A stretch of DNA of 64,000 nt from a virus: the IMG/VR virus record IMGVR_UViG_3300009314_000008, positions 14,446 to 78,445 of that record, one strand, 5' to 3'. The notes beneath the pieces are model-generated. The model worked only from the letters and a program-made list of their open reading frames with translations, did no database searches and was not told the origin of the DNA. Shown piece by piece: positions 33,158 through 52,684 of the stretch. The first letter of the stretch is position 1, and each line of letters opens with the position of its first letter. The position numbers and the translations under genes are program-made.

Positions 33158-33538
33158 TTATATTCGGGGCGCCCTATAATATTTTATTAATGAATTAACA
33201 TACTTTTCAGCATCTCTCTGTAATACACTGGGGAATGCTTTTGCTTTTAAATCATCAATTTCAGATAAAACTTTTGCTGCCCCCCCAGATAGTCCTCCTG
33301 CACCTACATGACGCATAGTCTTCATTAAAGATTTTGGTCCTATCAGCGAAGATAGTGCCCCTATCCCAGCCCCTAATAGAACAGCAGGCAATCGTCCCTG
33401 CTCAATATTATCAAAAGCATGAGTCTTGTAGTCTTTTATTGCCTGACTTTTGGTATATTGTGGATTAGTTGATATTTCGTCTTCGATGTCTGCAATATCT
33501 TTGACTATTGCTTCTTTAATTATTAATGGACGTTTCAT
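33158..33538 (-). CDS. Leader-bearing Gly-zipper protein (true start MKRPLIIKEA at 33538)
   Basis: AAGGAGAAATA-ATG RBS; LLGAGIGAL and VGAGGLSGGAA helices. Confidence 0.65.
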   Translation of the reverse strand: MKRPLIIKEAIVKDIADIEDEISTNPQYTKSQAIKDYKTHAFDNIEQGRLPAVLLGAGIGALSSLIGPKSLMKTMRHVGAGGLSGGAAKVLSEIDDLKAKAFPSVLQRDAEKYVNSLIKYYRAPRI

Positions 33539-33582
33539 TATTTCTCCTTTAATTTGCTCTTTCCATAACTTCGTATAATTGG

Positions 33583-33678
33583 TCAATGATATCTTTCTTC
33601 TCTTTTGATCTTTGCAACAAATAGAGGTTGTAATATAGTGCTGATCACCGCCTCTTTAACTACAATGGGACATCTCAC
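33583..33678 (-). CDS. 31-aa leader-bearing micro-ORF (not in ORF track)
   Basis: GTG start, AGGA upstream: MRCPIVVKEAVISTILQPLFVAKIKREERYH. Confidence 0.55.
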   Translation of the reverse strand: MRCPIVVKEAVISTILQPLFVAKIKREERYH

Positions 33679-33690
33679 TATTTCTATTTC

Positions 33691-34170
33691 CTATGTATCT
33701 CTCATATAGTATTTATAGTTTTTAGGATTTTTCTTTATCCCCGGTCTTTGATAATGTCTCCTGAAATTTTCTATATCAGTTTTTTTATCAGCATATGCTC
33801 GCATTCTCTCCATTCTCCTTTTATTTGGAGTAAATGCTGCACCTAATCCTATTCCACTTAATAGCGACGATCCCAATATAATAGGTAATTTGTATTTTCC
33901 TTTTATTTTTGACCCGGACATAAGACTACTAGATATTGTGCCACCCAGTCCTCCTCCTAATATCCCTCCAGCGACCTGCCTATTTTTTTTGTATACTTTA
34001 GGCAGATTCCTATATCTATTTATCCTTTTGTTCCTCAATTCATCAGATAATTCCAGATATTTATCGCTTGTTATTTCTTTTGCTTTTGTTGGGGTATACC
34101 CTCTATACTCACCTTTGTTGGATACTCTCATCAATGTAATGGCTTCTTTTACTATTCTTGGACATTTCAT
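33691..34170 (-). CDS. Leader-bearing basic protein with two Gly-zipper helices
   Basis: MKCPRIVKEA; GGILGGGLGG; ILGSSLLSGIGLGA. Confidence 0.7.
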   Translation of the reverse strand: MKCPRIVKEAITLMRVSNKGEYRGYTPTKAKEITSDKYLELSDELRNKRINRYRNLPKVYKKNRQVAGGILGGGLGGTISSSLMSGSKIKGKYKLPIILGSSLLSGIGLGAAFTPNKRRMERMRAYADKKTDIENFRRHYQRPGIKKNPKNYKYYMRDT

Positions 34171-34250
34171 TTTATTCTCCTTTATTTTTTCAATCCAGTA
34201 TATCGTCTTGGATCGTATATTCCTTATATTTAATCATATATTCTCCAAAA

Positions 34251-34382
34251 TTATTTTTTGACTGATCCTAAACCGTGTTGGATAAGAACATTGTTATTCA
34301 TTGATTTTCTAACAGTCCTTTCCTGATGTGGCTGTAAGACGGTTTTAGTTGCTGCCATTTTTACAGATGCAGGACATTTCGT
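34251..34382 (-). pseudogene. Leader fused to truncated SNF2/SF2 helicase N-terminus; start codon reads ACG
   Basis: GAGG..AAATAAG-ACG-AAA-TGT-CCT: (T)KCPASVKMAATKTVLQPHQERTVRKSMNNNVLIQHGLGSVKK*; LxPHQ Q-motif and a HGLGS(GKT)-like Walker A cut short. Confidence 0.6.
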
Positions 34383-34424: not shown

Positions 34425-34694
34425 TTAACTAGATTTATCTTTTTTTAATGTTTGTGCTCGTCTCCAACCTGACATATATCCAAGATGATAACCTATTGAA
34501 CCAGGTATCGTTAGTAGCCCAGCGTAATTTTTAAATTTCAGTCGTTCCGGATTTTCTTTTCTGCTGATAGCTCCTTCCCTAAATCCCTTTTTCTTACCTT
34601 CTCCATGACCTATCAAAGAAGGTGTTCCAAATAACGACAGATCGATGGCAGGACCTACGAGAACGGCCATTTTAACTATTTGTGGACATTTCAT
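34425..34694 (-). CDS. Leader-bearing small protein
   Basis: MKCPQIVKMA; AGGAG RBS; Gly-rich helices. Confidence 0.7.
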   Translation of the reverse strand: MKCPQIVKMAVLVGPAIDLSLFGTPSLIGHGEGKKKGFREGAISRKENPERLKFKNYAGLLTIPGSIGYHLGYMSGWRRAQTLKKDKSS

Positions 34695-34708: not shown

Positions 34709-35209
34709 CTAAACTCCAGACACAACGTAGGGCTTACCAACTAAGGGTTGTTTACCTAACACTATGTGTGCAGGATATTTTTTATTCTTAATTATATTAT
34801 GTTTTATCTTTATACCTTTTGGTTTTATTGCTTTTAACTTCTTGTAGCCAAACCTTCCTCCAACTCCGATTGCAGCACCACCTATAGTTCCTTTGACAAC
34901 ATTTCCACCGCTTATGCCCGATGATATTCCACCGACAGATCCACCAACAATACCTGCTTTTGTATATGGATTTTTCCATATATGTTTAGCGATGGGTTTA
35001 AATGCTTTTAATGCGGCAACTATTCCCGCTTCCTTCAGTACTATTGGGCATGCCAACTTAATCCCATTATCGGTTTTTCTCTTAGTTATTGCTGGTGCAT
35101 ATCTTGCCCGGGAATTAGTTATTGTTGGCGTTTTCATCACAACAGATTGTCCGGCCTTTAATGCTTTACTATACAATAGACCCTTATCATAATTTATCAT
35201 ATTTACCAT
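34709..35209 (-). CDS. Basic protein with internal leader and Gly-zipper
   Basis: KLACPIVLKEA internal; GIVGGSVGGISSG..GTIGGAAIGVGG. Confidence 0.65.
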   Translation of the reverse strand: MVNMINYDKGLLYSKALKAGQSVVMKTPTITNSRARYAPAITKRKTDNGIKLACPIVLKEAGIVAALKAFKPIAKHIWKNPYTKAGIVGGSVGGISSGISGGNVVKGTIGGAAIGVGGRFGYKKLKAIKPKGIKIKHNIIKNKKYPAHIVLGKQPLVGKPYVVSGV

Positions 35210-35901
35210 CCTATTAGTTTATATTTAAACATCAGTCCAACCGTTGTTGTATTCCCCTTTAATCCAATTCCATATCTTTCATCAAAGATGATATCTATGC
35301 CTACAAAACCATCTAATCTCTGTTTATTATTATTAACTTCTGGATTATAATCATATTGGGTCTCCCCTACGAAGAATATCTGTCCTTTATCAACGGTTTT
35401 AATATATTTTCTTTCCCAATTGAGCCTCACATTTTTTATCTGATATCTCAATTTATCAAAGATATACATTACTCCATCTTTATCTAGATTTACATCAATA
35501 TCTATCCACTCATGAATATCAAATTGCAGAGTATCCCCTTCGGCTGTAAAGAGTTTTCGCACTTTTATTGCATTATCGCCACTATAATCTAATGTGTGGG
35601 AAGCAGCATTAGCCACCATGAGAGTATCATAAATAGTTTCTCCATCTTCTGTGACAATAATTGATATTGTATCCTTGATAATCTTGGGATTAGTAAATAG
35701 CGAATCTGCTATCGATTTCCAATTATTCGCCTGATGAGTAACCGCACTTATACTCTCCGTCAAGGAATCCACCTTGCTATCCATAAACACAAGGTCTTCC
35801 TCTTGCCTAACGATTGTATCGTTTACACCATTTCGATAGGCAAAGTGATAAATGCTGCCAGTTAGCACTACTATAATAAGCACGATTATCTTAACATCCA
35901 T
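35203..35901 (-). CDS. Membrane-anchored protein, putative spanin-like lysis protein
   Basis: N-terminal TM, coiled coil, C-terminal amphipathic beta-strands ending YKLIGW. Confidence 0.45.
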   Translation of the reverse strand: MDVKIIVLIIVVLTGSIYHFAYRNGVNDTIVRQEEDLVFMDSKVDSLTESISAVTHQANNWKSIADSLFTNPKIIKDTISIIVTEDGETIYDTLMVANAASHTLDYSGDNAIKVRKLFTAEGDTLQFDIHEWIDIDVNLDKDGVMYIFDKLRYQIKNVRLNWERKYIKTVDKGQIFFVGETQYDYNPEVNNNKQRLDGFVGIDIIFDERYGIGLKGNTTTVGLMFKYKLIGW

Positions 35902-35972: not shown

Positions 35973-36854
35973 TCAAGTAGGTCCACCAAAGTTTGCTCCA
36001 GAACACACACCTTCCGTACCTCGACTTTTAATGGATTTATTTGCTGATTGTATCCACCTTTTGGTTGCTTCCTTTAATACCCATGGACATAAAGCCTTCT
36101 TTTCTATAAGTAAATGCATAGATTTGCCCCGCGCCATCTTCAATATATTGGGATACGCTAATTTCTTAAACCAATCCGTTTTTGACACATCATCAAATGC
36201 TCTATTGATTGTTTTAGCAATTTCCTCATTGCCTCCTTTGTCGGGATGCACTTTCCTCATCGTTGCCCAATAAGCTTGTTTTACCTGACTTTTTGAGTTA
36301 ACTCCTTTCATCTTTAATCCGAAAGTACTTAAATTCTTTTTTATGGTAGCCTTTGGAATGTTCGGCGACCCTGAGTATTGTTGATATGCACGCCTGAAAC
36401 CATCATATGATGCGCCCCGCAATTTTGCGTGATTGTACGGGATAAAAGATCCTGCCAACATCCCTAATCGTATACCCACACCCACAGATTTTTTCAGTTC
36501 ATTTTTATTTCGTCGTGTTCTATTAGAATAAAATTGTTTAAATGTCGCTGATGGATTCTTTTTTTTATACCTTCCCCATTGGTTTTTAAGAGTACCAGCA
36601 TATGATAGCCCACCCCCTACTGCGCTACCTCCTCCTATTCTAATGGCCATTTGCCTCATAACCTCACTTTGTAGTGAAGCCTTTTTTGGAAGCCCCTTTC
36701 TCTTAGTTTTAGCAAATTCCCTGATTTTTTCTTTGGGCATTTTCTCGTATATCTGCCTAGCCGGACCATGTAATGCAGAGACTGGTATTTCGCCCTTTTT
36801 GGCTGCATAGACAAGTCCCATTAATTTTTGTTGGTTCTGACTGACACTGGGCAC
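35973..36854 (-). CDS. Polyprotein: DUF3008-like domain + Gly-zipper TMs + J-domain + leader-preceded small basic module (GTG start 36854; frame continues past TGA to 35901)
   Basis: PSVSQNQQKLMG...KKGE...EFAKTKRKGLP (DUF3008-like); HPDKGG; YPNILKMA and LCPWVLKEA linkers. Confidence 0.7.
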   Translation of the reverse strand: MPSVSQNQQKLMGLVYAAKKGEIPVSALHGPARQIYEKMPKEKIREFAKTKRKGLPKKASLQSEVMRQMAIRIGGGSAVGGGLSYAGTLKNQWGRYKKKNPSATFKQFYSNRTRRNKNELKKSVGVGIRLGMLAGSFIPYNHAKLRGASYDGFRRAYQQYSGSPNIPKATIKKNLSTFGLKMKGVNSKSQVKQAYWATMRKVHPDKGGNEEIAKTINRAFDDVSKTDWFKKLAYPNILKMARGKSMHLLIEKKALCPWVLKEATKRWIQSANKSIKSRGTEGVCSGANFGGPT

Positions 36855-36855
36855 G

Positions 36856-37572
36856 TTATTCTCCTGCATAGAATAATGGATTTATTCCAGCTTCAACTAA
36901 TACTGTTATTTTACCCGGATTAGACGCACCGCTGACTACTTGTATTTCAATGTCTGATTTACTCTCAACTATTATTGGTTCTTCTAAATCTATTTCTGCC
37001 ACTCCATTCAGGAGGGACACAGATAATTCCCGTTTAAATACTTTCCCAAAAGGTCTTACATTCAAAGACATAAGCGAACTCCCATCATCTGCACCCGCTT
37101 CTGACAGAATAATCTTTTTAATGAAGATCCTTTTCTTATTGGGCACTGTATAGAGAGCCATCTCACTCTTATTTTTTCCGGTTTCTATCATACCTCTAAT
37201 GTTGTTATCATTAGGTATTCCGCCTGTCGGAGCAGATTCGGTACCGATATATATGTCGCCAGCATTATTGGTGTCTCCTATATTCTCTATACTAAACACC
37301 CTTCTCCAAGAATTATCTTCTCCAATTTTTACCCCGGTTTGCCCCGAAGATGTAACCTCTACCTCTTGATAAACATAATTAGCATCTACCCCTGTCACTT
37401 TATAATCCTGATCATCTCCGTTATCAGAGCTGGACAAATATAATGTTTCTGATACAGAACCATAAATATATTCCATATTATGTGGCCAAACAAGTTGATT
37501 TACATCTGTTGTCAGATTCCCAGCATATCCTTTTATTTTTATAGGTTTCATACCCGCGAATACTTTGCTCAT
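36856..37572 (-). CDS. Virion structural protein (beta-rich)
   Basis: LYLSSSDNGDD, GVDANY, NAGDIYI, YTVP, KSDIEI pattern common in phage structural proteins. Confidence 0.5.
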   Translation of the reverse strand: MSKVFAGMKPIKIKGYAGNLTTDVNQLVWPHNMEYIYGSVSETLYLSSSDNGDDQDYKVTGVDANYVYQEVEVTSSGQTGVKIGEDNSWRRVFSIENIGDTNNAGDIYIGTESAPTGGIPNDNNIRGMIETGKNKSEMALYTVPNKKRIFIKKIILSEAGADDGSSLMSLNVRPFGKVFKRELSVSLLNGVAEIDLEEPIIVESKSDIEIQVVSGASNPGKITVLVEAGINPLFYAGE

Positions 37573-37581: not shown

Positions 37582-40350
37582 TTACTTATCTAAATCCATA
37601 TTTGCTATTATTTTTTTATATAATGTGGGATTTATGTATCGAAGTTGCTTTAGCATTTCTACCCTGTCGGTTTCATTATAACTTTCCTGAATCTGTAGAG
37701 CCATCTCCTTGGCAACATCGTCTTCCCCCGTTTTAATCAAGGTGTTGTCCTTTTCAATTTTCATGAATTGATCTAGATTGTCGGATATCATCTGCTTAAA
37801 CTCATCGGGGAACTTTTGAACTTCCTTTACAAACTTGCCGAATTCTGGTGTTCCTTCGAGTTTAATCATCCTGGATGCATAGGCCGCGGCTTGTTGCTTA
37901 ATGAACATTCGGCTTTCCAGTTCGGTTTCTACATCTTTGGCGATATCTGGACGGTGAGCCTCAATCTCCTCAACTATATCAGATATTTCATTGTCGTCTG
38001 CATTGGCTAATCTATCTGCATAGCCCATTGTGGCCATAGCATCCGCAGTTTCTTTAACTTTAGCGAACCTCTCCGAAGATTCCTGCATTAATTGCTGTTT
38101 AAAATATTCTCTCTCGTCCTGATTTAATCTATTATAGGTTGTAGCAGACAAATTTATACTCTGATCTTCTGCTCTTTCTTCGTCCATTCTTTTAATACGT
38201 TCTTTCTGCAAGTTTGGATCCATTGTGACCGTTTTCTCTATTTGTTCTTCATCCTTTTTCTTCTTATATATATTTTCCAGTTGCTTATTGCGTTCTTCTT
38301 CGCTTAATTGGGACAATTCCTGTTTAGTCTGGGGATCAAGATTGTCGTTAATGGCCGACATTTCCTGTTCTATAGCAATTTCTTGAAGACATTTCTTTCT
38401 GTCATCGTACTTCATGCCGATCAATTCCAGTTGTTTAGTTTTTGGCAATTTTTTATAAATCTCCATCAATTGACGGTATTCTTCGGCCATCTGTCTCTTA
38501 TAATTAACCTCATCTCCCTTGAGTCCCATGGCTTCCATCTGATTCAATTCCAATTTCATTGATCGTTTTGCATCTCTATACTGCTGATCAGATTGTATTT
38601 TGAGACTTTCCTTCATATGTTCTAAAGAACCATCCATCTCATTAATCCGCCGTTTATTCTGAACATCCAATTGATAATCCAACAACTTTTTCTTGGATGC
38701 AATATCCATTTTCATCAATTTCTTATGTTTATCAATAGCGGCCTCCATTTTATCGGATTCAATGGCGGCTATAGATAACTGATCTTTCAGGGCTTCTCGA
38801 CGTTCAGTTTCTTTTATTTTCTTCTGTCCAGATAACAATACTTCTTGGAATTCAACTTCACCCTGGGCTTCGAGGCGTTTCTGCATTTTTTTGAAATAGA
38901 TTCTATCCTGTTTAGTGGCTTCTATTTTTGATCTTTGTGCTCGGAGATCAACACCAAACCGACTATAATATAATTCCGGAGATATATCTCCGTTCACCAT
39001 ACCCTTTTCGAGAAAAGTTGACTCCGCAAGGGCCTCGACCAACCTGGGCATTTCCAAAGTCAATTCGACCTTATCTTTTACATTCTGCGATGAGTTTATT
39101 TTCTCGGCTATAAAATCTAATAATTCCTGGACTAACATTCCGAATTGTTTAAATGTATTTTCGAGAATAATCGCTGATACATTTTGTCGTGACCATGTTA
39201 CTCCACCGAATATAAACTCAATAGGTACACCTATTGTGGCCAATATGTCCGACATGTTCTCGCGCAATTCTCTTCCGAGCACGAGAAGTTTGCCGGCTCC
39301 CCAAAAGTCTTTACTGCCCATTTCAATAGGCATCACCATTACATGTTTATTATCTTTTTTCCATTTTTTATATTGTGAGAGAACGCTCTGTCGCCAAGTC
39401 AACGAATTAATAGTTTGAGTCCTTGGTAGATGACCTCCAGATTCACCTCTCCAAATAGGATAAAGCATCCGGAACGGAACCATCAATTCTTCGGCAACAT
39501 TAGCGTTTGCTTGGACATACTTCATTCTTGTATAGAGATCTTGGAATGCCATTACCATGGGTGGAATTGGCATCCCTTGAATATTCATTGTCGGAGCCTC
39601 AAAGATAAATAGTTTGCTGGGATTGATGACTATCCTGCGATTTTTCAATGCCGCTCTTATATATATCTGAGGCGTTGTACAAAGAATATAATGATCACCC
39701 CTGCGTATCAGATTACGCATTTCTTTATCAATATATAATTTATATTGTTTTGTGTCAGTTATTTTATTATAAACTGCTTCAATATTGTTAGGTGACCATA
39801 CTGCTATAGACATTCTTTTTAAATTTGAACTATCTTTTCTATCTCTCATCTTAAAGGATGCATTTTTCCCATAGGCAGAACACTTTTTGTTGCGGCATTT
39901 ATATTGAATCGATCCTTCTCCCGAACTATCCCATTTATATTCTGGGTCTCCTGTATGTGTGAGATCTTTTAACAAATACGTATCTCCACAACTTTCACAC
40001 ACAATAACCTTATCAATAGCATACATCGGAAAAACAGCACTTATCCCATATATATCATAATCACGACATGTCTTCACTATTTTTTCTCTTAATTTAATCA
40101 CCCTGATCATCTTTTTGGCTCTATCCTCAAGTTCTGGATTATTACTTCTGATTTTAATATCCTGGATGGCAAATCTTGCCTTCTTGAGTATAGCCGTCCC
40201 AATCGCTGTATGGGTAAAGAAAAACTCCGCATAGCGATAATAGGTCTTCGCTCTAACGGGGACAACTATTCTGTCCATGTTCAGGTTGAACACCAAATTC
40301 TTGATTCTGCTTGTATTATAGCTGCCTTCAGTAACACTATCTAATGACAT
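37582..40350 (-). CDS. Portal protein with Zn-ribbon insert and long C-terminal coiled coil
   Basis: DYDIYGISAV, IGVPIEFIFGG, LENTF; position between terminase and protease. Confidence 0.65.
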   Translation of the reverse strand: MSLDSVTEGSYNTSRIKNLVFNLNMDRIVVPVRAKTYYRYAEFFFTHTAIGTAILKKARFAIQDIKIRSNNPELEDRAKKMIRVIKLREKIVKTCRDYDIYGISAVFPMYAIDKVIVCESCGDTYLLKDLTHTGDPEYKWDSSGEGSIQYKCRNKKCSAYGKNASFKMRDRKDSSNLKRMSIAVWSPNNIEAVYNKITDTKQYKLYIDKEMRNLIRRGDHYILCTTPQIYIRAALKNRRIVINPSKLFIFEAPTMNIQGMPIPPMVMAFQDLYTRMKYVQANANVAEELMVPFRMLYPIWRGESGGHLPRTQTINSLTWRQSVLSQYKKWKKDNKHVMVMPIEMGSKDFWGAGKLLVLGRELRENMSDILATIGVPIEFIFGGVTWSRQNVSAIILENTFKQFGMLVQELLDFIAEKINSSQNVKDKVELTLEMPRLVEALAESTFLEKGMVNGDISPELYYSRFGVDLRAQRSKIEATKQDRIYFKKMQKRLEAQGEVEFQEVLLSGQKKIKETERREALKDQLSIAAIESDKMEAAIDKHKKLMKMDIASKKKLLDYQLDVQNKRRINEMDGSLEHMKESLKIQSDQQYRDAKRSMKLELNQMEAMGLKGDEVNYKRQMAEEYRQLMEIYKKLPKTKQLELIGMKYDDRKKCLQEIAIEQEMSAINDNLDPQTKQELSQLSEEERNKQLENIYKKKKDEEQIEKTVTMDPNLQKERIKRMDEERAEDQSINLSATTYNRLNQDEREYFKQQLMQESSERFAKVKETADAMATMGYADRLANADDNEISDIVEEIEAHRPDIAKDVETELESRMFIKQQAAAYASRMIKLEGTPEFGKFVKEVQKFPDEFKQMISDNLDQFMKIEKDNTLIKTGEDDVAKEMALQIQESYNETDRVEMLKQLRYINPTLYKKIIANMDLDK

Positions 40351-40407
40351 TACCTATCTCACCTTGCTTTTGCCGCCGAAAATATCATCCGCTTTCTTTA
40401 ATATCCT

Positions 40408-41754: not shown

Positions 41755-41765
41755 GTCTCCCCCTC

Positions 41766-41924: not shown

Positions 41925-41972
41925 TCTTTCCTCCATTATTTAATCTTTACTTTTAATTGACCATTGTTTTTT

Positions 41973-43865: not shown

Positions 43866-44155
43866 TTCATTCTCCTCTTTATTATAGATATCAAATCGCT
43901 TGCATCTCTTTTTAATTTCTTAACCATCTTTATCTGCCTAGCCTTTTCAAATTTCTTTGCCTGTCTCATGTAGTTAACCTGATAAGGGATTGCCTTGACT
44001 TGTAGTTTTATTGATCTGACAGGGTAGTATCTTCTATATTTAGAAAGGTCGTTAATAAAATTATGAGAGAATATTGCTTTAGTCATTGCTTTGGTAGACG
44101 CTCTCCCTAACAATGTTGAAGTTAAGGCTTCTTTAATTATCCCTGGACATCTCAC
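43862..44155 (-). CDS. Leader-bearing basic helical protein
   Basis: MRCPGIIKEA; ATGA/GTGA coupling on both sides. Confidence 0.7.
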   Translation of the reverse strand: MRCPGIIKEALTSTLLGRASTKAMTKAIFSHNFINDLSKYRRYYPVRSIKLQVKAIPYQVNYMRQAKKFEKARQIKMVKKLKRDASDLISIIKRRMK

Positions 44156-45999
44156 AACAAATCCTCCCCATAAATTTTTAACTTTTTATATAGTATTTTC
44201 TTTATCTTTGGCATATTTAATGGAATCTTATCTTTCATTTTATTTAATGTCTTCAATCCAAAAGCACTTGCTTCCGCTTCTGATAAATACTCGTTCATAG
44301 CAGTAGGCTTCTTCCAATATTTCTGGTTATATGTTTGTTTCTTAAGAATATCCAATAATCCTTTTTTGCTCTTCACAGCATGCCCCAGTTCGTGAGACAA
44401 CACTGCTGCCGGCTCATTTTTTCTTGGAAGCATAGAGACGATCTTCCTGACAGCAACATTTTTCACTTTAGGAATAGATATAGATAAATCATTTCCTCTA
44501 CCTTTGAGAAATTGCCCGCCACGCAGCAATCTAATATAATCTCTTACCCCAATATCTGAGTTGACTCCCCCATATTCTATATTGAGCATTCTCTTAAGAG
44601 TGGGATTGATCTTTTTAAGTGGGATGAAATGCCTCTCTATAGGAATCTTGTGCGCCTTTATTTCTCGAAGTAAAGGTCTTAATTTAAGTATAGACCTTAG
44701 GGAAGACTTTTTTTGTAAAATGCTGGGGCAATTCATTGTTTTTCCCACTTTAAAAAGTTTTTGTTTATTTAGAGGACTTCCGGTTCTACCCTTCATAGTC
44801 CATTCCTTGAATTGCTCTACGGTCATCGCCGTGATCGGTCCACATTTCCATCCCTTCTCATAATTAGCGAGATATGTTTTTCTAGCCTCATCTTCAGTGA
44901 GTGCCCCGAGGATACACTTGTGTTCATCGAATTTACCGTTCTTGTCTACTTGATCAATTACATACACTATCTGACTTTCTGGATGACTTCCTATGAACAC
45001 ATCAATTTTGTCCCCATCTTTCCCATCCTGTGCATTAGAGATGTATCCATAATCATATTTCATCTTTATTGACCACGATTTACCATCTGGGTCAGTTCCG
45101 GATCTCGTTGATCCCTTTGGGTTCTCCAATTTAATAGTCAGTCCATTCCACTTGAATGACCCTTTTTTGTAGTTCTCGGCTTTTATTTGGGCATCTGATG
45201 GGTTAATGTTGGTATCTTTTCGAGCCCTATTTATATCTCCGGTCATTGTTGCTATTTTAATATTATTGGGCATTCTGTCATTTAACGCCTCCCTCATTGC
45301 TCTGTATGAATCTTTTTTAATGTTACGTTTCATGTCCAAGTTTGTAGGGAATGCCTTATAGTTAGTAATATCAAAGTCTATTAAAGTGTTTCCTATTGTG
45401 TTTTGAGCGGTAGTATCTCTAAGATGAGGAAACCTTTTTTTAATATTCTTATAGTCCGACTTGTTTATTATATTTGCATTAATTATTTTATGAACTTTTT
45501 CTCTTGCCTTGTTTATAGAAATTATTCTTTTTTGCCATCTAATTTTTTCTGCTACTGTCCCCTCTCTTGGATACTCATTAGGGACCATATTTTTTTTTAT
45601 TATTGCCGCTTTATCAGAAATTTTTCTCCCCTTAATGTATTCATAATATCCAATCCCTTTATTTCTCTTTACCATTTTCGCTACAGGAATACCCTTTTTG
45701 TGCATTAACTTCCTCGCTTTATTCCATACCTTATGCTCCATTGCCTGAGCTTTATATATTCCTATAATATCGCTTGCAGATTTTCTGTCTATTAAAGGTA
45801 TTTTTCTAACAGCTTTTCCAATACCTTCTGTGAATACGAGGTCGGCGATCCTGAAAGCTCCTCTACCTAATGGCTTTATCGTCCTGTCTTTATACCCAGC
45901 TTCCGCCAGTCTTTTAAGCGACTCTCTTCCTAATTTCCCAGACCTCACCATCTTAACCCATCTTGGAGAAGCTCTCTTCAGTATTACAGGACAATTCAT
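44152..45999 (-). CDS. Polyvalent protein: protein kinase-like domain + InPase domain + HExxH zinc metallopeptidase, each preceded by a leader
   Basis: LGRGAF, AVRK, EH, YYEYIKG, DTTAQN, LIDFD; then NYKKG..ENPKGS.RSG...YGY..DGD.IDVF...FDEHK; then HELGH...EAEASAFG. Confidence 0.8.
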   Translation of the reverse strand: MNCPVILKRASPRWVKMVRSGKLGRESLKRLAEAGYKDRTIKPLGRGAFRIADLVFTEGIGKAVRKIPLIDRKSASDIIGIYKAQAMEHKVWNKARKLMHKKGIPVAKMVKRNKGIGYYEYIKGRKISDKAAIIKKNMVPNEYPREGTVAEKIRWQKRIISINKAREKVHKIINANIINKSDYKNIKKRFPHLRDTTAQNTIGNTLIDFDITNYKAFPTNLDMKRNIKKDSYRAMREALNDRMPNNIKIATMTGDINRARKDTNINPSDAQIKAENYKKGSFKWNGLTIKLENPKGSTRSGTDPDGKSWSIKMKYDYGYISNAQDGKDGDKIDVFIGSHPESQIVYVIDQVDKNGKFDEHKCILGALTEDEARKTYLANYEKGWKCGPITAMTVEQFKEWTMKGRTGSPLNKQKLFKVGKTMNCPSILQKKSSLRSILKLRPLLREIKAHKIPIERHFIPLKKINPTLKRMLNIEYGGVNSDIGVRDYIRLLRGGQFLKGRGNDLSISIPKVKNVAVRKIVSMLPRKNEPAAVLSHELGHAVKSKKGLLDILKKQTYNQKYWKKPTAMNEYLSEAEASAFGLKTLNKMKDKIPLNMPKIKKILYKKLKIYGEDLL

Positions 46000-46011: not shown

Positions 46012-46896
46012 TTAGTGGCGTTTTTTAAAATATTCAGATGCTTCGGGGTTACTTTTATAGAGTTGGAACCTGTATTTCCTTCTTAGGTATTTCATACGTA
46101 ACTCATCTAATTTTCTTGGAGACTTAAATACATACTTCCTTGTCTTCGGGCTCCTCATCATGCGAAATCTTCTCGTGAGCGGACCCCTAATAAGTGCATT
46201 AAATGCTTTTCCTGAAACATCCGCCGCATTCGTGACGAGTCGTCCCGACACCGCTGTTTTCGGTATATAAGGTGCTCTCTCATATGCAAGTTTACTGAAC
46301 CACCCTGAGTTTTTAATGGATGTCCATGCTCCCACCACTTCTTTCATAATATCCTCCGAACCACCTTTATCAGGGTGGCTTTTCATTGCTGCTGCTCTAA
46401 AAATCTTTTTTACCTGAGCCTTAGTCTTTACTGACGATTTATTAATGTTTAGCGTTTTAATTGCTTTATCTAAATTTCCGCTCTTTACCGCGAACCCACC
46501 TAAGTTTTTAAAGTATTCATAATATTTTTTATTTAAATCTTCCCACATTGCCCGGTTCATCCTTCCTCTTATGTTTTCTGCTGCTCCATTAAGCCCTCTT
46601 CTTATGTTTTCTGCTGCTTCATTAAGCCCTCTCATTCTTCTTTTATGCCGATACACCGATGGTCCTATTGCCATCCCCACAAGAGCTCCCCCAATAGCTG
46701 TCCCTATTGCGGCATCTTTAAGATCCTTACCGGATTTCGTCTTTATGTATTGCCCAAAAGATAATCTGTTTTTTCTCCCACCCCGCACATACTTATTGTA
46801 GTTTCGGTGTCCTTGCCATAAACTTGCCCCACCGAGCATTCCACCCAATGTGCCGCAGGTGGCAGTAGTTCCAGCTATTGTCTTAAATGCTCCCAT
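46012..46896 (-). CDS. Gly-zipper TM + J-domain protein with C-terminal leader-preceded module
   Basis: GTLGGMLGG, GTAIGGALVG; HPDKGG; WFSKLAY..APYIPKTA; paralogous to 35973..36854. Confidence 0.75.
   Translation of the reverse strand: MGAFKTIAGTTATCGTLGGMLGGASLWQGHRNYNKYVRGGRKNRLSFGQYIKTKSGKDLKDAAIGTAIGGALVGMAIGPSVYRHKRRMRGLNEAAENIRRGLNGAAENIRGRMNRAMWEDLNKKYYEYFKNLGGFAVKSGNLDKAIKTLNINKSSVKTKAQVKKIFRAAAMKSHPDKGGSEDIMKEVVGAWTSIKNSGWFSKLAYERAPYIPKTAVSGRLVTNAADVSGKAFNALIRGPLTRRFRMMRSPKTRKYVFKSPRKLDELRMKYLRRKYRFQLYKSNPEASEYFKKRH
46567..46632. repeat. 33-bp in-frame tandem duplication
   Basis: Two copies of TCTTATGTTTTCTGCTGCTYCATTAAGCCCTCT with one mismatch (RGLN[EG]AAENIR x2). Confidence 0.9.
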
Positions 46897-46984: not shown

Positions 46985-47107
46985 CTATTTAACAAACACC
47001 CATTCGATTACAACAGTGCCTGAACAGTTTAGATCACCATCTGGATGCCAATGCCATAACCCTCTATCTTCAACATCGGCAATTTTCAATATTTTAGGAC
47101 ATTTCAT
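46985..47107 (-). CDS. 40-aa leader-bearing micro-ORF (not in ORF track)
   Basis: MKCPKILKIADVEDRGLWHWHPDGDLNCSGTVVIEWVFVK; its end matches the end of 48470..49105. Confidence 0.6.
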   Translation of the reverse strand: MKCPKILKIADVEDRGLWHWHPDGDLNCSGTVVIEWVFVK

Positions 47108-47146: not shown

Positions 47147-48214
47147 TTATCTTATCTTCCTGATAATTCCTGAAATAAATTTTCTCGCCTTTATGGGCAC
47201 TTTTTTATAGTTTTCTGCCTTAATCTGTGCTTCTGACGGATTAGCATTAGTTGCTTTGCGAGCACTGGCAATATCTGATAACATCCCGGAGAATTTTATC
47301 ATAGCATTTTTTTTGATTTGATTCACTCCATTTTTATCTTTATTTTTTGCTTCTCTAATTCCAGCGGCAACCAAAGCCCCTCCTAATATAACGGAGGGTA
47401 TTATTTTATTTTTGTTTCTGCTGAAATATCCAGGAAACGTTTTCTTATAGTTTTCAGTCGTACGCATTCCATTAGCAAACGCTTTATAAGTATCACGATA
47501 ATGCTTGGATGGTCCTCTATCCATTGTATAAGTTTGGGGTCCTAGAATATCAAAGTCTACTAGCGTTCTATCAACAAGATTTCTATTCGTCATATCATAT
47601 ATTCTCGGATATTTTCTTTTTATTTTTCGCATGGTTTTAGCATCTATAGGTGATTTATTAAGAATCCTTAACATCCTTAATTTAGCATTCTTTACCCGAA
47701 TTCTCCTAACTCTATCACCCTGCTTTCCATATTCGTCTAGTTTATTAAATAATTTTTTTGCTTTATTAGCAACGCTCCTACCTTTAACATGCTCATAATA
47801 TCCTATTGGGCCATCTTGTTTTATCAATCGAGGAACCTTTATCTTCTTTTTTGACAAATATTTTTGCACTTTATTCCATACAAAATGTTCCTTTGCTTGG
47901 CTATTATATGGCTCATGAATATAATATTTCGACACCCCCTCTATATTAGGTATTTTTCTAACAGCTTTACCCACCCTACTAGTAAATACCAAGTCAGAGA
48001 CTCTTGTTCCTCCCACTCCAAGATGTTTTATTGTCCTATCTTTATATCCAGCATTTGCAAGAATTTTTAATGCCTTCTCACTTAATTTGCCTGACCTTAT
48101 CATCTTGATCCATTTGGGAGACGAATACTTCTCTATTGCAGATATCTTAATTATTGTTGGAAGCATACTTATTCTCCTAATTCCCGATGTTTTTATGATA
48201 CAAGGGCATTTCAT
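47147..48214 (-). CDS. Leader-bearing protein kinase-like protein + TM helix + truncated InPase stub
   Basis: MKCPCIIKTS; LGVGG, AVRK, EH, YYEHVKG, DMTNRN, LVDFD; ends NPSEAQIKAENYKK. Confidence 0.75.
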   Translation of the reverse strand: MKCPCIIKTSGIRRISMLPTIIKISAIEKYSSPKWIKMIRSGKLSEKALKILANAGYKDRTIKHLGVGGTRVSDLVFTSRVGKAVRKIPNIEGVSKYYIHEPYNSQAKEHFVWNKVQKYLSKKKIKVPRLIKQDGPIGYYEHVKGRSVANKAKKLFNKLDEYGKQGDRVRRIRVKNAKLRMLRILNKSPIDAKTMRKIKRKYPRIYDMTNRNLVDRTLVDFDILGPQTYTMDRGPSKHYRDTYKAFANGMRTTENYKKTFPGYFSRNKNKIIPSVILGGALVAAGIREAKNKDKNGVNQIKKNAMIKFSGMLSDIASARKATNANPSEAQIKAENYKKVPIKARKFISGIIRKIR

Positions 48215-48469: not shown

Positions 48470-49105
48470 CTATTCTTTAAGTAATACCCATTCTATCACA
48501 ACTGTTCCAACATATTCCAATGCATCTTCACCACTAGCTGCCCATCCATCAGCGACATTCAAGTATACTGTTTTATCACCACCTGTCTCAATCTCCAGGG
48601 GGTCTGCTAATGCCAATGTTTTCGTAGTATAAGTGCTATCACAATCTGTAGCGGTCTGGCCGGTTAAAATATTTTCAAACGCGGCTGTTCCGCCCAACAC
48701 ATTTACAACACCCGATGCTACCGTAGTTCCAATACCTACATCTGGGGTGTCTGCAGTAATATTCCCATCACTTTCATTCAAAGCAATATTCATATATGCG
48801 CCCTTGACAACTATTGCCCCCGTGGGGAAAGTATACAGTAACTGTCCCAAAGCCAAATCGGCTCCGCCAGGTATATCGGCAAAGTGGGCAGATGATATTG
48901 CAATTTCAGTTACATGGAATTTTGCGTCGCCATATTCTACTACGGAGGCTACACTATCAGATTTTGTACCCACATTTTTAGTAGTGATCATGGTACTGTC
49001 CGTCTGCACCTTCCCGTAGAATCGATTAGTTGCAGACTTAAAGTCCTTCGCAAATAGCGATGTCACCAACAACATCGCAAGCAAAATAATTACTAATTTC
49101 TTCAT
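48470..49105 (-). CDS. Beta-rich protein with Sec signal peptide
   Basis: MKKLVIILLAMLLVTSLFA-K; jelly-roll-like body. Confidence 0.6.
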   Translation of the reverse strand: MKKLVIILLAMLLVTSLFAKDFKSATNRFYGKVQTDSTMITTKNVGTKSDSVASVVEYGDAKFHVTEIAISSAHFADIPGGADLALGQLLYTFPTGAIVVKGAYMNIALNESDGNITADTPDVGIGTTVASGVVNVLGGTAAFENILTGQTATDCDSTYTTKTLALADPLEIETGGDKTVYLNVADGWAASGEDALEYVGTVVIEWVLLKE

Positions 49106-49374: not shown

Positions 49375-50379
49375 TTATTTATTTTTGACGGGGCTATCTT
49401 GTTCTATATTGCCTGTATCAACCACCTCGTCTTTTAATTGATACAGGGTTTTCCTCTCTTGAGGCATTATTTTAAGTCTTTCTATCATTCTCCTTATTTC
49501 GGCTCTTAAACTTTCTGCGCTATCTCCCTTAGATGCATCTTCTTGCAACTGGCTATCGGTATGAGAAAAAATTTCTGTCACACCACGACCTATAGATTGG
49601 TGTTTTTTGGATAACCGTGATTTTATCAATCTGCCAGACTTACCCCGCAGATCTCTAATGTCTTGCATTCTATCAAATTCATTCATTAACCCAAAATATG
49701 AAAGGGCATCCGCCACAGGGTTGAACATTAATTCTATGTGGGGACTATAATAAGGATTCTGCTTATCATATACCAAATATTCATAAATATCCATTATATC
49801 TGCCCCTCTTTTTCTAAGAGAACCACTCGCAACATCCCAGAAATATAAAAGATAAAAGTATAGATTTGTTTCACTCAATTTAAAATCATTCTCCTGTGTA
49901 TGTCGATTCCAATTTTTTACAATATCTGCCCTAAATCTTTCCAGCAATATACTTATTTCAATATATTGTCGCAATTTTTTGCACCTCAAGATATGATAAA
50001 CACTTTTAGCACATCCGTTCACATCTTTTATCTCTCTACTATATGGACTTAGCATGGCTGTGGTTATATCTGCTCCACCCCTTATGTGTTTTACCAATAT
50101 ATTAGGATCAGATATAATAGGTTTGTGTTTAAGAGAATCTATTTCCACGGAATTATCTTCCCGGATTTTCCTATTTTTCTTGACCATGGTTGCTGTTGCT
50201 TTATCATCCATCATTTCATTGATATAATATTCATAATATTTATCATCTATGCTATTAAAACTCTCCTCCACGACCTTCTCTTTTATGCCTTTTATGCCAT
50301 CAGTCGATTTTATGGGAAATCCGGACAATGCCAACAACTTTATAAATCCTAAGTGGGGAATTACTTTTAATAAGTTCAT
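49375..50379 (-). CDS. Hypothetical protein (candidate terminase small subunit)
   Basis: Helical; Y..YFWD motif; upstream of terL. Function guessed from position only. Confidence 0.35.
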   Translation of the reverse strand: MNLLKVIPHLGFIKLLALSGFPIKSTDGIKGIKEKVVEESFNSIDDKYYEYYINEMMDDKATATMVKKNRKIREDNSVEIDSLKHKPIISDPNILVKHIRGGADITTAMLSPYSREIKDVNGCAKSVYHILRCKKLRQYIEISILLERFRADIVKNWNRHTQENDFKLSETNLYFYLLYFWDVASGSLRKRGADIMDIYEYLVYDKQNPYYSPHIELMFNPVADALSYFGLMNEFDRMQDIRDLRGKSGRLIKSRLSKKHQSIGRGVTEIFSHTDSQLQEDASKGDSAESLRAEIRRMIERLKIMPQERKTLYQLKDEVVDTGNIEQDSPVKNK

Positions 50380-50383
50380 TTGA

Positions 50384-52396
50384 TTATTCGCCCTTTATAT
50401 CAGAAATCAACCCTGTTATTGCCTTAAAAGCCTTCGTTAATATTGGTTCAGACAAATGTGTTTTTGACATTCTGGACAATAATAAGACATTCCCTATTTT
50501 ATTTAGCGTTTTACTCAGCAGTTCCAACAGTTCTTCTGAATTTACGATATTTTTTTTATCAGCATATTCTGCGGAAATCAGTCCATTAATGACATTCTCT
50601 ATTTCGGCATCTTTTTCAATTGGCCATTCTCGCCAAAGAATCGATGCTGTTTTGATAAAATCCCCTCTATATTTATCCATAGCAGACAAGTCCACATAGT
50701 GTTTTGGTTCTATGTCTTTAATATTTCCAGCATATTTTGACAAATAAATATCACTAGGATCATAGTCTTCTATTCTGTCAGCGTTTTGCCCAGTAAAGTA
50801 ATTGGCAACCAGGAGTGAAGCCTCTTTTTTCATAGTTTCATCAAAAATCTTCCTACTTCCATTGCGAACCGTCACCCTGTATTCATCCATGTCAACCATC
50901 TCAATAGCTGTTTTGATAGGATAATCTGTTTGGATATTTTTCATAATGTCTGACACTTGAGATTTGATTTTTGAATCCTTGATTCTTTTCCCGGGAAGAA
51001 ATATGGGGCGATAATATTCCGGCAAAAGATATATATCCCTGCCCGGTCTAACAATCGCCCCTAGTCCTTGAGCAATCATTTTTTCAGTGTCCGCTTTAGT
51101 CACTTTATCAATACCGCTATTTAACCATACTGTCGCATGACTACCATCATGATATGATTTTAAATAATAGAGAACTATTTCGCGTCCATCTTTTGCGAGT
51201 CGTGTTTTTGTTACCTCTTCTACTCTATATGGGAGGGTTATTGTCCTGCTGGCTTCAAATATTATATCCTTGCCTTGAACATTTTGTAGATCAACAGGTG
51301 TCATTCCACCGAAATAATAGCCCTGCGACTTGGTTTTTAAATTTTCATAATCGTCTGACCCACCATATACCTCGCCATAAATCCATTCTCGTGGGTCATT
51401 CGTTTCGTGAAGGGCAGAGGTATTTTCAGAAACAGCCAACGCTCTAGATTTTCCTGTCTCCCATATTTTTAATGGGTCGGTTACGACAACACCTCTTTTT
51501 CCAATCCCATTAAATAATATATATTGATAATTCCCCGATTCCGTTATCTTTTTGATTTTGGGCATATCCTTTAACTGTTTATCCAGTATCATTGATACAT
51601 ATTTGGTTGTTCTATTATCAAGGCAATCAGAATCAGAATTAGAATCATATACACACCCCCCTTCAACAAATCCAGCAATTTTATTAAAATCTTCTGCAGA
51701 CATTTCAAACCTTTCTATTTTATATTTACCATCAGAGGCTTGTTTTAACATAATTCCAGAAAAATGATATGGTTTTTCTGGAATTTCTCTCCTCTTTATC
51801 ACTAATATTCTGTCTTCATCATTTTTACCCTTTGCTACCCCCTCCTTAATAAGATTCTCAATATTTTCTGGCAATTTTACACCCCTGCTATCTAACAAAT
51901 TTCTTACCCTTGCAACAGTGGATATTGTGGCTGCTACTTTTATGCCCGTCTGGTCACTAACATCAAATAATCCCCCTTCTGTAAGAAATTCTATCTCATC
52001 AGAAACATCATTAGTCTCTTCAGTTTGCCCCATTTCCTGATTCTTCTCCACTTCAGATAATATAAAAGACTCCGATATGGGAATAACTTTATTCTGGTAT
52101 ATCGCTGCGTCAATATCTTTGAGGATGTTGTTTTCAATTATCACTGGGATAGTCATCGATGTATTACCTTCCATCCATACTATTGATCCAATAGCATCCC
52201 CAGTTGACTCATCTATCTTATTATATTTAACTTCCTTTAATCCTGCCGTCAAAAATGGATATTTATTTGAGATGTATTCTCTTATCTCTTCTCTCCATTG
52301 ATCTGGGCGGTCATTCGTTAAATCCAAAACAGCCGTCTTGACAACTATGTCTTTAAATACATCGTTTGCATTTAGTGGATCTTTAAAAAATTTCAT
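50384..52396 (-). CDS. KxA-rich internal head protein
   Basis: VKTA, KVA, KQA, KTA, KEA, KYA, KTA motifs; start of head module. Confidence 0.55.
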   Translation of the reverse strand: MKFFKDPLNANDVFKDIVVKTAVLDLTNDRPDQWREEIREYISNKYPFLTAGLKEVKYNKIDESTGDAIGSIVWMEGNTSMTIPVIIENNILKDIDAAIYQNKVIPISESFILSEVEKNQEMGQTEETNDVSDEIEFLTEGGLFDVSDQTGIKVAATISTVARVRNLLDSRGVKLPENIENLIKEGVAKGKNDEDRILVIKRREIPEKPYHFSGIMLKQASDGKYKIERFEMSAEDFNKIAGFVEGGCVYDSNSDSDCLDNRTTKYVSMILDKQLKDMPKIKKITESGNYQYILFNGIGKRGVVVTDPLKIWETGKSRALAVSENTSALHETNDPREWIYGEVYGGSDDYENLKTKSQGYYFGGMTPVDLQNVQGKDIIFEASRTITLPYRVEEVTKTRLAKDGREIVLYYLKSYHDGSHATVWLNSGIDKVTKADTEKMIAQGLGAIVRPGRDIYLLPEYYRPIFLPGKRIKDSKIKSQVSDIMKNIQTDYPIKTAIEMVDMDEYRVTVRNGSRKIFDETMKKEASLLVANYFTGQNADRIEDYDPSDIYLSKYAGNIKDIEPKHYVDLSAMDKYRGDFIKTASILWREWPIEKDAEIENVINGLISAEYADKKNIVNSEELLELLSKTLNKIGNVLLLSRMSKTHLSEPILTKAFKAITGLISDIKGE

Positions 52397-52405
52397 TATA
52401 TCTCC

Positions 52406-52684
52406 TTATAATGGTATGTTCTTGCTTTTCTTCATTACATTAAAAATGCTTGTCCCCAACCAAAGCCCAGTCATCCCTTTGCCCAGTAGCCCTACGGTCT
52501 TCTTTCCCAGTGATTTATGTAATTTTGGACCAGAAATATTGGGCGTTTTCATAGTATTCTTTGCAATAGTTGACATGTTCATGGGAGCCACTTCACTTTT
52601 CTTTAAAATCGATGGGCACTTAATATTTTTTCTCTTCTTTTTGTCTAGGTTATCATGGACATACCGTCTTACATATGATATCAT
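52406..52684 (-). CDS. Small basic protein with internal leader and C-terminal hydrophobic helix
   Basis: IKCPSILKKS; VGLLGKGMTGLWLGTSIF. Confidence 0.6.
   Translation of the reverse strand: MISYVRRYVHDNLDKKKRKNIKCPSILKKSEVAPMNMSTIAKNTMKTPNISGPKLHKSLGKKTVGLLGKGMTGLWLGTSIFNVMKKSKNIPL

Follow-up and report, generated by a model that had tools for sequence, protein, structure and literature searches.

A recurrent ten-residue leader on unrelated head-module proteins of an uncultured marine myovirus, most likely a head-targeting tag

Why should many unrelated proteins encoded beside the head genes of one phage begin with nearly the same ten residues? The phage is an uncultured marine myovirus whose GpA-type TerL is at most 25% identical to that of any cultured phage. 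We examined the leader in the 64,000-nucleotide stretch of its genome analysed here (the window). A preliminary description had listed about 18 copies of the decapeptide, and all were recovered at the positions given, 10/10 at N-termini and 8/8 internal, every one on the minus strand. Their consensus is M-[KR]-C-P-x-[IV]-[IVL]-K-x-[AS]. The copies are carried by the following genes:

33158-33586, minus strand: 142-aa ORF; leader MKRPLIIKEA, without Cys, at 33509-33538
33583-33678, minus strand: 31-aa ORF; leader (GTG)RCPIVVKEA at 33649-33678
33691-34170, minus strand: 159-aa basic cargo gene with a Gly-rich hydrophobic segment; leader MKCPRIVKEA at 34141-34170
34251-34382, minus strand: probably decayed cassette; (ACG)KCPASVKMA, canonical start absent
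34425-34694, minus strand: 89-aa cargo gene; leader MKCPQIVKMA at 34665-34694
34709-35209, minus strand: 166-aa Gly-zipper-like cargo gene; internal leader L(TTG)ACPIVLKEA at 35027-35056
35973-36869, minus strand: 298-aa DUF3008 and J-domain protein; internal copies AYPNILKMA (36129-36158) and ALCPWVLKEA (36066-36095), both C-terminal to the J domain
43614-43865, minus strand: 83-aa Gly-rich cargo gene; leader MKCPEIIKEA at 43836-43865
43862-44155, minus strand: 97-aa very basic cargo gene; leader (GTG)RCPGIIKEA at 44126-44155
44152-45999, minus strand: 615-aa three-domain cargo protein; leader MNCPVILKRA (45970-45999), N-terminal domain, RMPNNIKIA (45247-45276), InPase PF18823 (residues 269-401), MNCPSILQKKSS (44701-44736), zincin HELGH domain
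46012-46896, minus strand: 294-aa J-domain protein; no N-terminal leader, degenerate internal copy ERAPYIPKTA at 46252-46281
46985-47107, minus strand: 40-aa ORF; leader MKCPKILKIA and a fragment similar to the C-terminal end of the 211-aa protein encoded at 48470-49105
47147-48214, minus strand: 355-aa protein paralogous to the N-terminal domain of the 615-aa protein; two leaders in tandem, MKCPCIIKTS (48185-48214) and MLPTIIKIS (48137-48166)
52406-52684, minus strand: 92-aa cargo gene; leader I(ATT)KCPSILKKS at 52595-52624

Start codons vary among the copies. The leaders at 33678 and 44155 begin with GTG, and the ATG of that at 33538 lies within a longer ORF starting at TTG. The cassette at 34382 is probably decayed, since ACG occupies the start position and no canonical start lies upstream. 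In internal copies the "Met" position may be another codon, as with ATT at 52624 and TTG at 35056.

The recurrence is real and far above chance. A regular-expression scan against shuffled controls, as the preliminary description had proposed, gave 11 matches to the strict form CP.[IV][IVL]K.[AS] in the six-frame translation of the window, all in minus-strand ORFs between 33.6 and 52.6 kb. Among called genes, those of the head module (8,218 aa) gave 10 matches and the other 43 (11,255 aa) gave 0, with a mean of 0.00 in 500 per-protein shuffles. Six-frame translation of the remaining 2.62 Mb of the 2.76-Mb assembly yielded only 4 matches, all one repeat (FxFCPLILKIS). The looser N-terminal pattern h-x-K-x-[AG] was present in 12/31 head genes versus 0/43 others. 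That all copies are confined to the head module, as first described, is true of the window; elsewhere on the phage contig two more leaders lie about 10-19 kb past the window end on the opposite strand; one of these two genes sits within the phage RNAP beta/beta' operon:

C1:74874, strand opposite to the window copies: leader MECPSIIKVA, outside the head module
C1:83258, strand opposite to the window copies: leader TCPLIIKQA, outside the head module

Synonymous codons are mixed at the leader C, P, K and A, and the DNA upstream of the copies is only 39% identical, which indicates selection on the leader at the protein level and not at the DNA level. What follows the leader is diverse: 53 payload segments fell into 31 BLAST clusters, 22 of them singletons, and window segments have a pI of 10-11. 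The earlier view of a protein-level signal on interchangeable, unrelated and very basic payloads was thus borne out. Payload types include Gly-zipper membrane-type, J-domain, InPase, zincin and kinase-like domains, and the payload region has DarB-like PHROG matches. InPase and MPTase domains of polyvalent proteins have been predicted to be packaged in virions (PMC5512222); the InPase, zincin and DarB-like regions among these payloads are of kinds for which the literature predicts packaging in the head and injection.

Eleven relatives (TerL 41-51% identical), from a leader-bearing clade with no cultured members, each carry several copies, and the leader is conserved as protein where the DNA is non-alignable. 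The IKLACP form of the internal copy in 34709-35209 occupies the same orthologous position in two relatives. Relatives' InPase genes begin with the leader, about 20 aa before PF18823, and the 615-aa protein of the window has its internal copy at the same place and distance. In two relatives with the same head genes (L003 and L032) no recognisable leader was found in the DNA at hand. Variants include the one-residue-longer CPNMIVKIA and the Cys-less MRTPEIIKEA and MKAPVIIMKSA. Cys is replaced by Thr in L001 and L002, by Ile, Leu or Ala in L030, and by Arg, Tyr, Met, Leu or Ala among the window copies, leaving Pro plus h-h-K-x-A as the constant core. The signal had been described as Cys-Pro-containing; its Pro belongs to this core, but its Cys is dispensable.

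The second half of the leader, by motif comparison, is common to the major capsid protein (MCP), the candidate protease and scaffold-like proteins. Observed and expected numbers of h-x-K-x-[AGS] sites are given below where these were counted:

27713-28720, minus strand: MCP, 335 aa, homologous to gp226 of Salmonella phage Arash
30128-30694, minus strand: 188-aa acidic scaffold-like protein; 6 sites versus 0.8 expected, one of them the full P-x-h-h-K-x-A form
31157-33145, minus strand: 662-aa candidate prohead protease with a fused C-terminal domain, adjoining the cargo genes; 10 sites versus 3.3 expected
40408-41754, minus strand: 448-aa conserved protein of the head module, encoded between TerL and portal; 7 sites versus 2.3 expected
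50384-52396, minus strand: 670-aa conserved head-module protein; 11 sites versus 3.2 expected

Clustering of sites at p<0.01 was confined in the window to conserved head proteins. The N-terminal peptide of the MCP, MNIDNTQLIKEA (28685-28720), terminates in the leader-type core, and across six MCP orthologues the Lys within h-x-K-x-[A/G] is the sole invariant residue of the first ~45 aa. A near-invariant VLQKVA (32282-32302, residues 282-287) closes the protease domain, with K of VLxKVA present in 33/33 sequences; this near-invariance could have a structural cause instead of marking a cut site. The Pro(-4)/Cys(-5) pair is missing from non-cargo h-x-K-x-A sites, and the first half of the cargo leader is absent from those other 50 sites. 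That the K-x-A end recurs where the MCP begins, where the protease domain closes and within scaffold-like proteins fits a prohead-protease site, although the shortness of the core limits the weight of this recurrence. The motif part of the earlier proposal, that the leader ends in a protease site K-x-A/S, is consistent with these data, but the scissile bond could follow K instead of A/S.

The 662-aa protein has invariant H100, N102, S151-M-G, D159 and C161. Its AF2 protease model (pLDDT 83.6) found as best structural match among 48,161 chains T4 gp21 (5jbl_A; Z 6.6, rmsd 3.7, 114 aa), a modest fold match, followed by the VZV protease (Z 5.4); a Foldseek search returned no significant matches. 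The model supports a gp21/assemblin fold for the N-terminal domain, making it a candidate prohead protease.

Most likely, the leader is a tag that sends proteins into the phage head and is then removed by the head protease. By analogy with the T4 capsid-targeting sequence (CTS), we put at roughly 60% a signal in two halves: M-K-C-P, specific to cargo, followed by a prohead-protease site of generic type. The cargo-only half, M-[K/R/N]-[C/T/aliphatic]-P, would bind the assembling prohead core. The other, h-h-K-x-[A/S], would be one form of a more general h-x-K-x-[A/G/S] site that the phage cleaves with its own protease of gp21/assemblin fold; the short N-terminal peptide of the MCP would end at the same site, and the site closing the protease domain would probably serve autocleavage. 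After shell formation, the tag would be clipped off by the protease and the basic payloads released inside the head, to leave it together with the DNA when a cell is infected. A leader kept at the junction of fused neighbouring cargo genes would let the enzyme separate their domains. Cleavage at such an internal copy would leave the tag attached to the piece upstream of it, where the model does not require one.

Several other readings deserve weighing. The least improbable is that the prohead protease cuts the leader without any targeting role, either keeping payloads inactive until maturation or acting at a site inherited from the splitting of polyvalent proteins, with packaging resting on features such as charge or membrane segments. 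Non-cargo substrates also carry the second half, internal copies act like domain junctions, and uniformly basic payloads might alone favour co-condensation with DNA. We nevertheless consider this reading unlikely: the first half (M-K/R-C/T-P) persists on payloads of 31 unrelated families and in relatives with as little as 41% TerL identity, a peptide that is only cut would have no need of a half that the other 50 sites lack, and in T4 the equivalent N-terminal half carries targeting (PMC9026906). An uncleaved peptide, serving as a docking handle for portal, scaffold, DNA or membrane or as a Cys-Pro heme-regulatory-type motif, appears more doubtful still. Many payloads do have Gly-zipper membrane-like segments. 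Heme-regulatory CP motifs, moreover, consist of a basic residue, Cys, Pro and a hydrophobic residue, much as the leader does. The many Cys replacements, however, exclude a thiol-dependent role as the conserved function, and a K-x-A half that also occurs in the N-terminal peptide of the MCP and at the boundary of the protease domain argues for proteolysis.

Processing by another protease, whether the HELGH zincin of the 615-aa protein or a host enzyme, is slightly less probable again. Host proteases do this in the Staphylococcus phage 80alpha / L27 Prp system. The zincin domain stands directly behind one leader copy, and Iyer et al. (2017, PMC5512222) proposed that polyvalent proteins are cut into units by MPTase domains. 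Yet a zincin domain was found in none of the relatives' leader-bearing fragments, a weak point because these sequences are fragments, and the site is common to the MCP, the protease-domain end and scaffold-like proteins wherever the 662-aa protease family occurs, including Arash. That the motif acts in DNA or RNA, as a translation-initiation region or a site of recombination, or that it arose by chance, has a negligible probability. Most copies do lie at start codons behind Shine-Dalgarno-like runs, but these explanations are refuted by codon mixing at every conserved residue, the low upstream identity and the empty shuffles; internal copies also lack start contexts, and relatives with non-alignable DNA keep the protein motif.

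The proposed targeting tag can be compared with four known systems. Among cultured phages, Arash (PMC10585845) is the nearest that carries the family of the 662-aa protease, with a homologous protease (gp222) and MCP (gp226, E=6e-15). It shares h-x-K-x-A before the MCP body (LVKEA directly ahead of the conserved part), at the protease-domain end and clustered in neighbouring virion proteins. Clustering at p<0.01 was seen only in gp218, gp220, gp222, gp223 and gp242, all found in virions by MS (PMC10585845); N-terminal h-x-K-x-A was only mildly enriched among virion proteins (10/15 versus ~46% overall). Arash virions also contain abundant RNAP beta and beta' (PMC10585845). Its TerL, however, is only ~22% identical, and a scan of 24 kb of its head module showed no leader of the M-x-C-P type.

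Like the T4 CTS, which is carried by IPI-III and Alt and removed by gp21, the leader is an N-terminal peptide of about 10 residues on unrelated, basic, fast-evolving proteins. In T4 the N-terminal part of the 10-aa CTS targets, residues 8 and 10 direct processing at a site also used on the MCP, and the internal proteins are basic and diverse (PMC9026906, PMC3012670); the predicted protease fold here is that of gp21. The sequences are unrelated, with Pro plus h-h-K-x-A here and a site ending in Glu in T4. Further differences are ~18 copies per genome versus a handful, copies at domain junctions within multidomain proteins, and polyvalent-type enzyme domains among the payloads.

In phiKZ-like jumbo phages (phiKZ, 201phi2-1, SPN3US), a single protease motif likewise serves for the processing of many head-internal proteins, the protease cleaves its own C-terminus, a multisubunit RNAP is packaged, and paralogues have conserved N-termini in common (PMC5694885). 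The leader gene in the RNAP beta/beta' operon may be a parallel. Propeptides there are mostly >100 aa with the motif S/A/G-x-E, whereas the tag here has 10 aa and ends in K-x-A.

Polyvalent proteins (Iyer et al. 2017, PMC5512222) and the P1 Dar proteins share InPase, zincin/MPTase and DarB-like regions beside head genes; for polyvalent proteins, packaging, injection and proteolytic separation into units have been predicted (PMC5512222). Here, in contrast, the domains are mostly separate small genes with one leader each, or fusions with a leader per junction. The leader system is a disaggregated polyvalent form, with an explicit shared tag that the description in PMC5512222 does not contain.

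All ten N-terminal and eight internal copies of the decapeptide M-[KR]-C-P-x-[IV]-[IVL]-K-x-[AS] (the leader) reported in the preliminary description were found in place, and its observation of one leader on unrelated payloads was confirmed by position, motif count and shuffling. Across the called genes, the pattern CP.[IV][IVL]K.[AS] matched 10 times in the head module and not once in the other 43 genes, against a mean of 0.00 in shuffled sequences. Translation of the window in six frames gave 11 matches, and every one fell in an ORF of the minus strand, in the range 33.6-52.6 kb. The rest of the assembly (2.62 Mb) held 4 strict-motif matches, all from one unrelated repeat. Two leader copies start with GTG, two counted as internal have ATT or TTG in the Met position, and one with ACG and no usable start has probably decayed.

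The window is the reverse strand of C1:466-64465, within a 134.6-kb phage-like contig (C1) of a marine metagenome assembly of 2.76 Mb and 189 contigs. Its minus strand carries 74 of the 80 called genes, including the head module.

Landmark genes of the window
44152-45999, minus strand, 615-aa three-domain cargo protein
41980-43599, GpA-type large terminase (TerL; phrog_675)
37582-40350, portal-sized protein of 922 aa, adjoining TerL in all relatives
31157-33145, minus strand, 662-aa candidate prohead protease
27713-28720, minus strand, MCP of 335 aa, homologue of the annotated MCP of Salmonella phage Arash (E=6e-15)
23238-25280, tail sheath

TerL was at most 25% identical to that of cultured phages, and blastn of the TerL-to-portal stretch (window 37582-43599) found no match among phage records. 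Scans of viral contigs with the single TerL sequence or with RNAP beta likewise returned nothing, as did a search of genome contigs with the TerL alignment. Relatives were gathered with TerL alignment A1, which gave 11 viral and 15 metagenome loci, some duplicating each other; TerL of the nearest was 73% identical. The phage was present at low depth in samples of the same study other than its source. Six short identical contigs from an RNA library are no evidence of expression, as DNA carry-over is possible.

Synonymous codons vary among copies at the conserved leader residues (Cys 8:3, Pro 7:4, Lys 6:5, Ala by four codons), and the DNA upstream of the leaders is only 39% identical. Selection therefore acts on the peptide, and the same two observations rule out a DNA-level element. 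Three known kinds of peptide signal were also rejected for the leader. A heme-regulatory motif needs an invariant Cys-Pro, and another residue takes the place of the leader Cys in numerous copies and throughout some lineages. A RiPP precursor leader was rejected because the payloads reach 605 aa and include folded enzymes; no peptide-modifying enzyme was matched among the window genes scanned with Pfam or PHROGs. Nor does the leader form a lipobox, since its Cys is residue 3 and has no hydrophobic region before it.

In relatives with about 50% TerL identity, M[KR][CT]PE[IM]IKEA is present in 6-10 copies; in those at 41-44%, the leader is longer by one residue (MRCPNMIVKIA) or takes other forms, for example MKCPIMLKVA. 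In the L030 lineage, seven adjacent genes have a Cys-less leader (MRIPVIFKEA, MKAPVIIMKSA, MTIPVIIKQA). The constant core therefore consists of Pro and h-h-K-x-A, where h is hydrophobic. The leader had been described as a Cys-Pro-containing signal, and this stood for Pro, which is constant; Cys is frequent but dispensable, as the L030 forms and the Thr variants indicate. No leader was found in the examined DNA of two relatives (L003 and L032), and a DNA pattern for exact MKCPxIIKEA matched only two relatives already in the set. From its distribution among these sequences, the leader is judged to be ancient and portable.

The sequences behind the leaders in 11 phages (53 segments) fell into 31 BLAST clusters, 22 of them singletons; payloads in the window have a pI of 10-11. 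InPase genes of relatives start with a leader about 20 residues ahead of PF18823, and the internal copy RMPNNIKIA in the 615-aa protein occupies exactly the same place relative to this domain. Leaders are therefore the points at which cargo genes fuse and separate. The 615-aa protein, which adjoins TerL, consists of an N-terminal domain, an InPase domain (E=1e-50) and a zincin (weak M91/M48 matches plus HELGH), and its PHROG matches are giant virion proteins, one of them DarB-like. J domains occur in two head-module proteins, one also with DUF3008, and several small payloads are Gly-zipper-like. By sequence, the payloads look like injected proteins.

Other features of the cargo cluster were also recorded. 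Midway through the cluster, with portal on one side and protease on the other, a 232-aa protein (35203-35901) has a membrane helix at its N-terminus and weakly matches an Rz-like spanin PHROG (E=9e-6). A 40-aa leader ORF (46985-47107) ends in GTVVIEWVFVK, near-identical to the C-terminus (GTVVIEWVLLKE) of a 211-aa protein (48470-49105) that begins with the signal-peptide-like MKKLVIILLAMLLVTSLFA; the short ORF looks like a leader joined to a piece of the neighbouring gene. In two other samples of the study, contigs follow the window as far as 33487-33521, 34187 and 36153 and then diverge. These three points, among the divergence points listed, lie at or beside leaders (33509-33538, 34141-34170 and 36129-36158), each on a single low-depth contig, as if leaders served as recombination joints for cassette exchange.

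The family of the 662-aa candidate protease has 1,856 cluster representatives at E<=0.001 and 240 at E<=1e-30, and there is no Pfam or PHROG model for it; in some members, 1,000-1,450 aa long, the C-terminal half is the part that matches. Nothing was found when PDB and Pfam were searched by sequence and by profile for this family, and Foldseek of the protease domain against PDB gave nothing significant. His100, Asn102, Ser151-Met-Gly, Asp159 and Cys161 are invariant in the family, the candidate catalytic residues H100 and S151 across 44 homologues. An AlphaFold model of residues 1-230 (pLDDT 83.6) was compared with 48,161 chains in the VIA wide search. The best match was T4 gp21 (5jbl_A, Z 6.6, rmsd 3.7 Å over 114 residues), followed by VZV assemblin (1vzv_A, Z 5.4), with no other match above Z 5. 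The predicted domain resembles the gp21/assemblin fold, at modest scores, and the gene order portal, protease, MCP is the same in the record of one relative (L006) and in Arash. The domain closes with V-L-x-K-V-A (K in 33 and A in 31 of 33 sequences), and a variable linker comes next. By analogy, autocleavage may plausibly occur here, as is known for T4 and jumbo-phage proteases (PMC5694885). When the whole protease protein was modelled in complex with the first 35 residues of a leader protein, the score was 0.01, which counts neither for nor against binding.

In the first 45 or so positions of six MCP orthologues, the sole invariant residue is the Lys within h-x-K-x-[A/G], 6-16 residues from the start (LIKEA, LEKIA, IEKIG, LEKTG, IAKNA, LGKLA). 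In the window, h-x-K-x-[AGS] was enriched at p<0.01 only in conserved head proteins, and h-x-K-x-[AG] fell inside the first 20 residues of 12 of 31 head-module proteins and of none of the 43 others.

Occurrences of h-x-K-x-[AGS] in conserved head proteins (observed versus expected)
Candidate protease, 10 versus 3.3
670-aa protein, 11 versus 3.2
448-aa protein, 7 versus 2.3
188-aa protein, 6 versus 0.8

At the sequence level, the motif that ends the leader is thus common to the MCP N-terminus, the end of the protease domain and the scaffold-like proteins. Upstream of the non-cargo sites are acidic or polar residues, not Pro or Cys, so the leader is made of a cargo-specific half (M-K-C-P) and a generic site. 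Cleavage motifs are h-x-E in T4 and V/L-x-A in herpesviruses; by analogy, the predicted scissile bond may lie after K, or else after A/S.

The protease family has distant cultured members in Arash (gp222) and three Vibrio phages. In Arash, LVKEA stands directly ahead of the conserved body of the MCP, and SVLEKVAN closes the protease domain. Over its full 181-kb genome, significant enrichment of h-x-K-x-A was confined to gp218, gp220 (9 versus 0.8), gp222, gp223 (8 versus 0.7) and gp242, all of which were detected by MS in Arash virions (PMC10585845). There the family member is annotated merely as 'structural protein', and the MCP coverage of 86.6% is uninformative (PMC10585845). Several virion-found Arash proteins encoded among early genes or tRNAs also have h-x-K-x-A at or near the N-terminus (gp95c MSLHKLA..., gp97c ...RLVKAA, gp100c MEKQAS...), as does the most abundant virion protein, RNAP beta gp206 (MPKSAS...). 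Such sites may be minimal tags; of the 15 proteins with one, 10 were virion-detected, versus about 46% of all proteins, an enrichment that is not significant.

The leader had also been described as confined to the head module. This held within the window; beyond it, copies were found in an RNAP operon (MECPSIIKVA) and upstream of a 193-aa ORF.

Multisubunit RNAP operon in L027, a stretch of C1 beyond the window (L027:5284-13649 = C1:69749-78114), in order
RNAP beta, 1079 aa (PF00562, E=7e-52)
Leader protein, 253 aa
beta' N-terminal part, 330 aa
LAGLIDADG endonuclease ORF, 358 aa
beta' C-terminal part, 783 aa

The 253-aa protein, which starts with MECPSIIKVA, is translationally coupled between beta and the beta' N-terminal part. 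It had no homologue within its size range and no informative atlas match, and it shows no similarity to Arash beta' gp216 despite an alike-looking N-terminus. If the leader targets proteins to heads, this copy would point to a polymerase carried in the virion, as is the case in Arash and in phiKZ-like phages; RNAP beta and beta' are abundant in Arash virions (PMC10585845). The beta' N-terminal part carries the catalytic GADFDGD (next residues SCISF...) and ends about 50 residues later. With beta' split right at the active-site motif and a homing endonuclease alongside, a remnant of an intein or intron is suggested; Rfam detected no group I intron. On the other strand, immediately upstream of the beta gene, Rfam placed a tRNA gene at 33.7 bits (L027:13752-13824). 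The other copy, TCPLIIKQAA (L027:18740-18840 = C1:~83205-83305), directly precedes the TTG start of the 193-aa ORF and has ATA in the 'Met' position, with no ATG, GTG or TTG before it. With ATT (52624), TTG (35056) and ACG (34382) at that position in window copies, it prompts the question whether leader genes use non-canonical starts.

The best-supported reading, by comparative inference and with a probability of about 0.6, is that the leader is a capsid-targeting signal joined to a prohead-protease site. More tentative, and somewhat doubtful as a whole, is a broader proposal: a clade-wide marine myovirus tag would make any protein injected head cargo, including an RNAP-operon subunit, so that the polymerase would itself be an enzyme of the virion. 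Cargo genes would fuse into polyvalent proteins and separate again at the tag, which would act as a cut site and possibly as a recombination joint, and its K-x-A half would reflect a hitherto unrecognised specificity of a large unannotated prohead-protease family that includes Arash. The T4 capsid-targeting peptide is now used to load foreign proteins into heads. A second system, unrelated to it in sequence, would make a tag plus protease site a convergent, general route to exchangeable arsenals of injected proteins, and would tie the tag mechanism to the domain repertoire of polyvalent proteins. It would also offer a simple sequence rule by which the genomes of uncultured phages could be searched for injected effectors, counter-defence candidates among them. 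The common h-x-K-x-A site is a testable specificity for the protease family, and Arash is cultured and has an existing virion MS dataset.

No description of a leader of this kind was found in the literature searched, and to our knowledge T4 is the only phage with a defined short, transferable capsid-targeting peptide. Polyvalent proteins carry 2-15 effector domains per polypeptide, with InPase/MPTase as signature, and are encoded beside packaging genes; their InPase/MPTase domains are predicted to be packaged, injected and proteolytically separated (Iyer et al. 2017, PMC5512222). By its predicted domains and position, the 615-aa protein fits this description. As the majority of the other cargo genes encode a single domain, the locus taken together does not amount to a polyvalent protein. 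The T4 capsid targeting sequence (CTS) spans residues 1-10 of the internal proteins; targeting lies in its N-terminal part, gp21 processing is directed by residues 8 and 10, and the CTS is the only common part of these basic, diverse proteins (PMC9026906, PMC3012670). T4 processing sites are glutamyl bonds (PMC9026906). The leader system, as known here from sequence alone, follows the same logic, with a short (~10 aa) N-terminal peptide on otherwise unrelated proteins (ten N-terminal copies in the window). However, the leader is unrelated in sequence and far more numerous, occurs also at domain junctions, and precedes polyvalent-type payloads in an uncultured marine clade. The T4 site ends in Glu, whereas the leader ends in K-x-A/S and has Pro at position 4; the leader is therefore an analogue, and not a homologue, of the T4 CTS.
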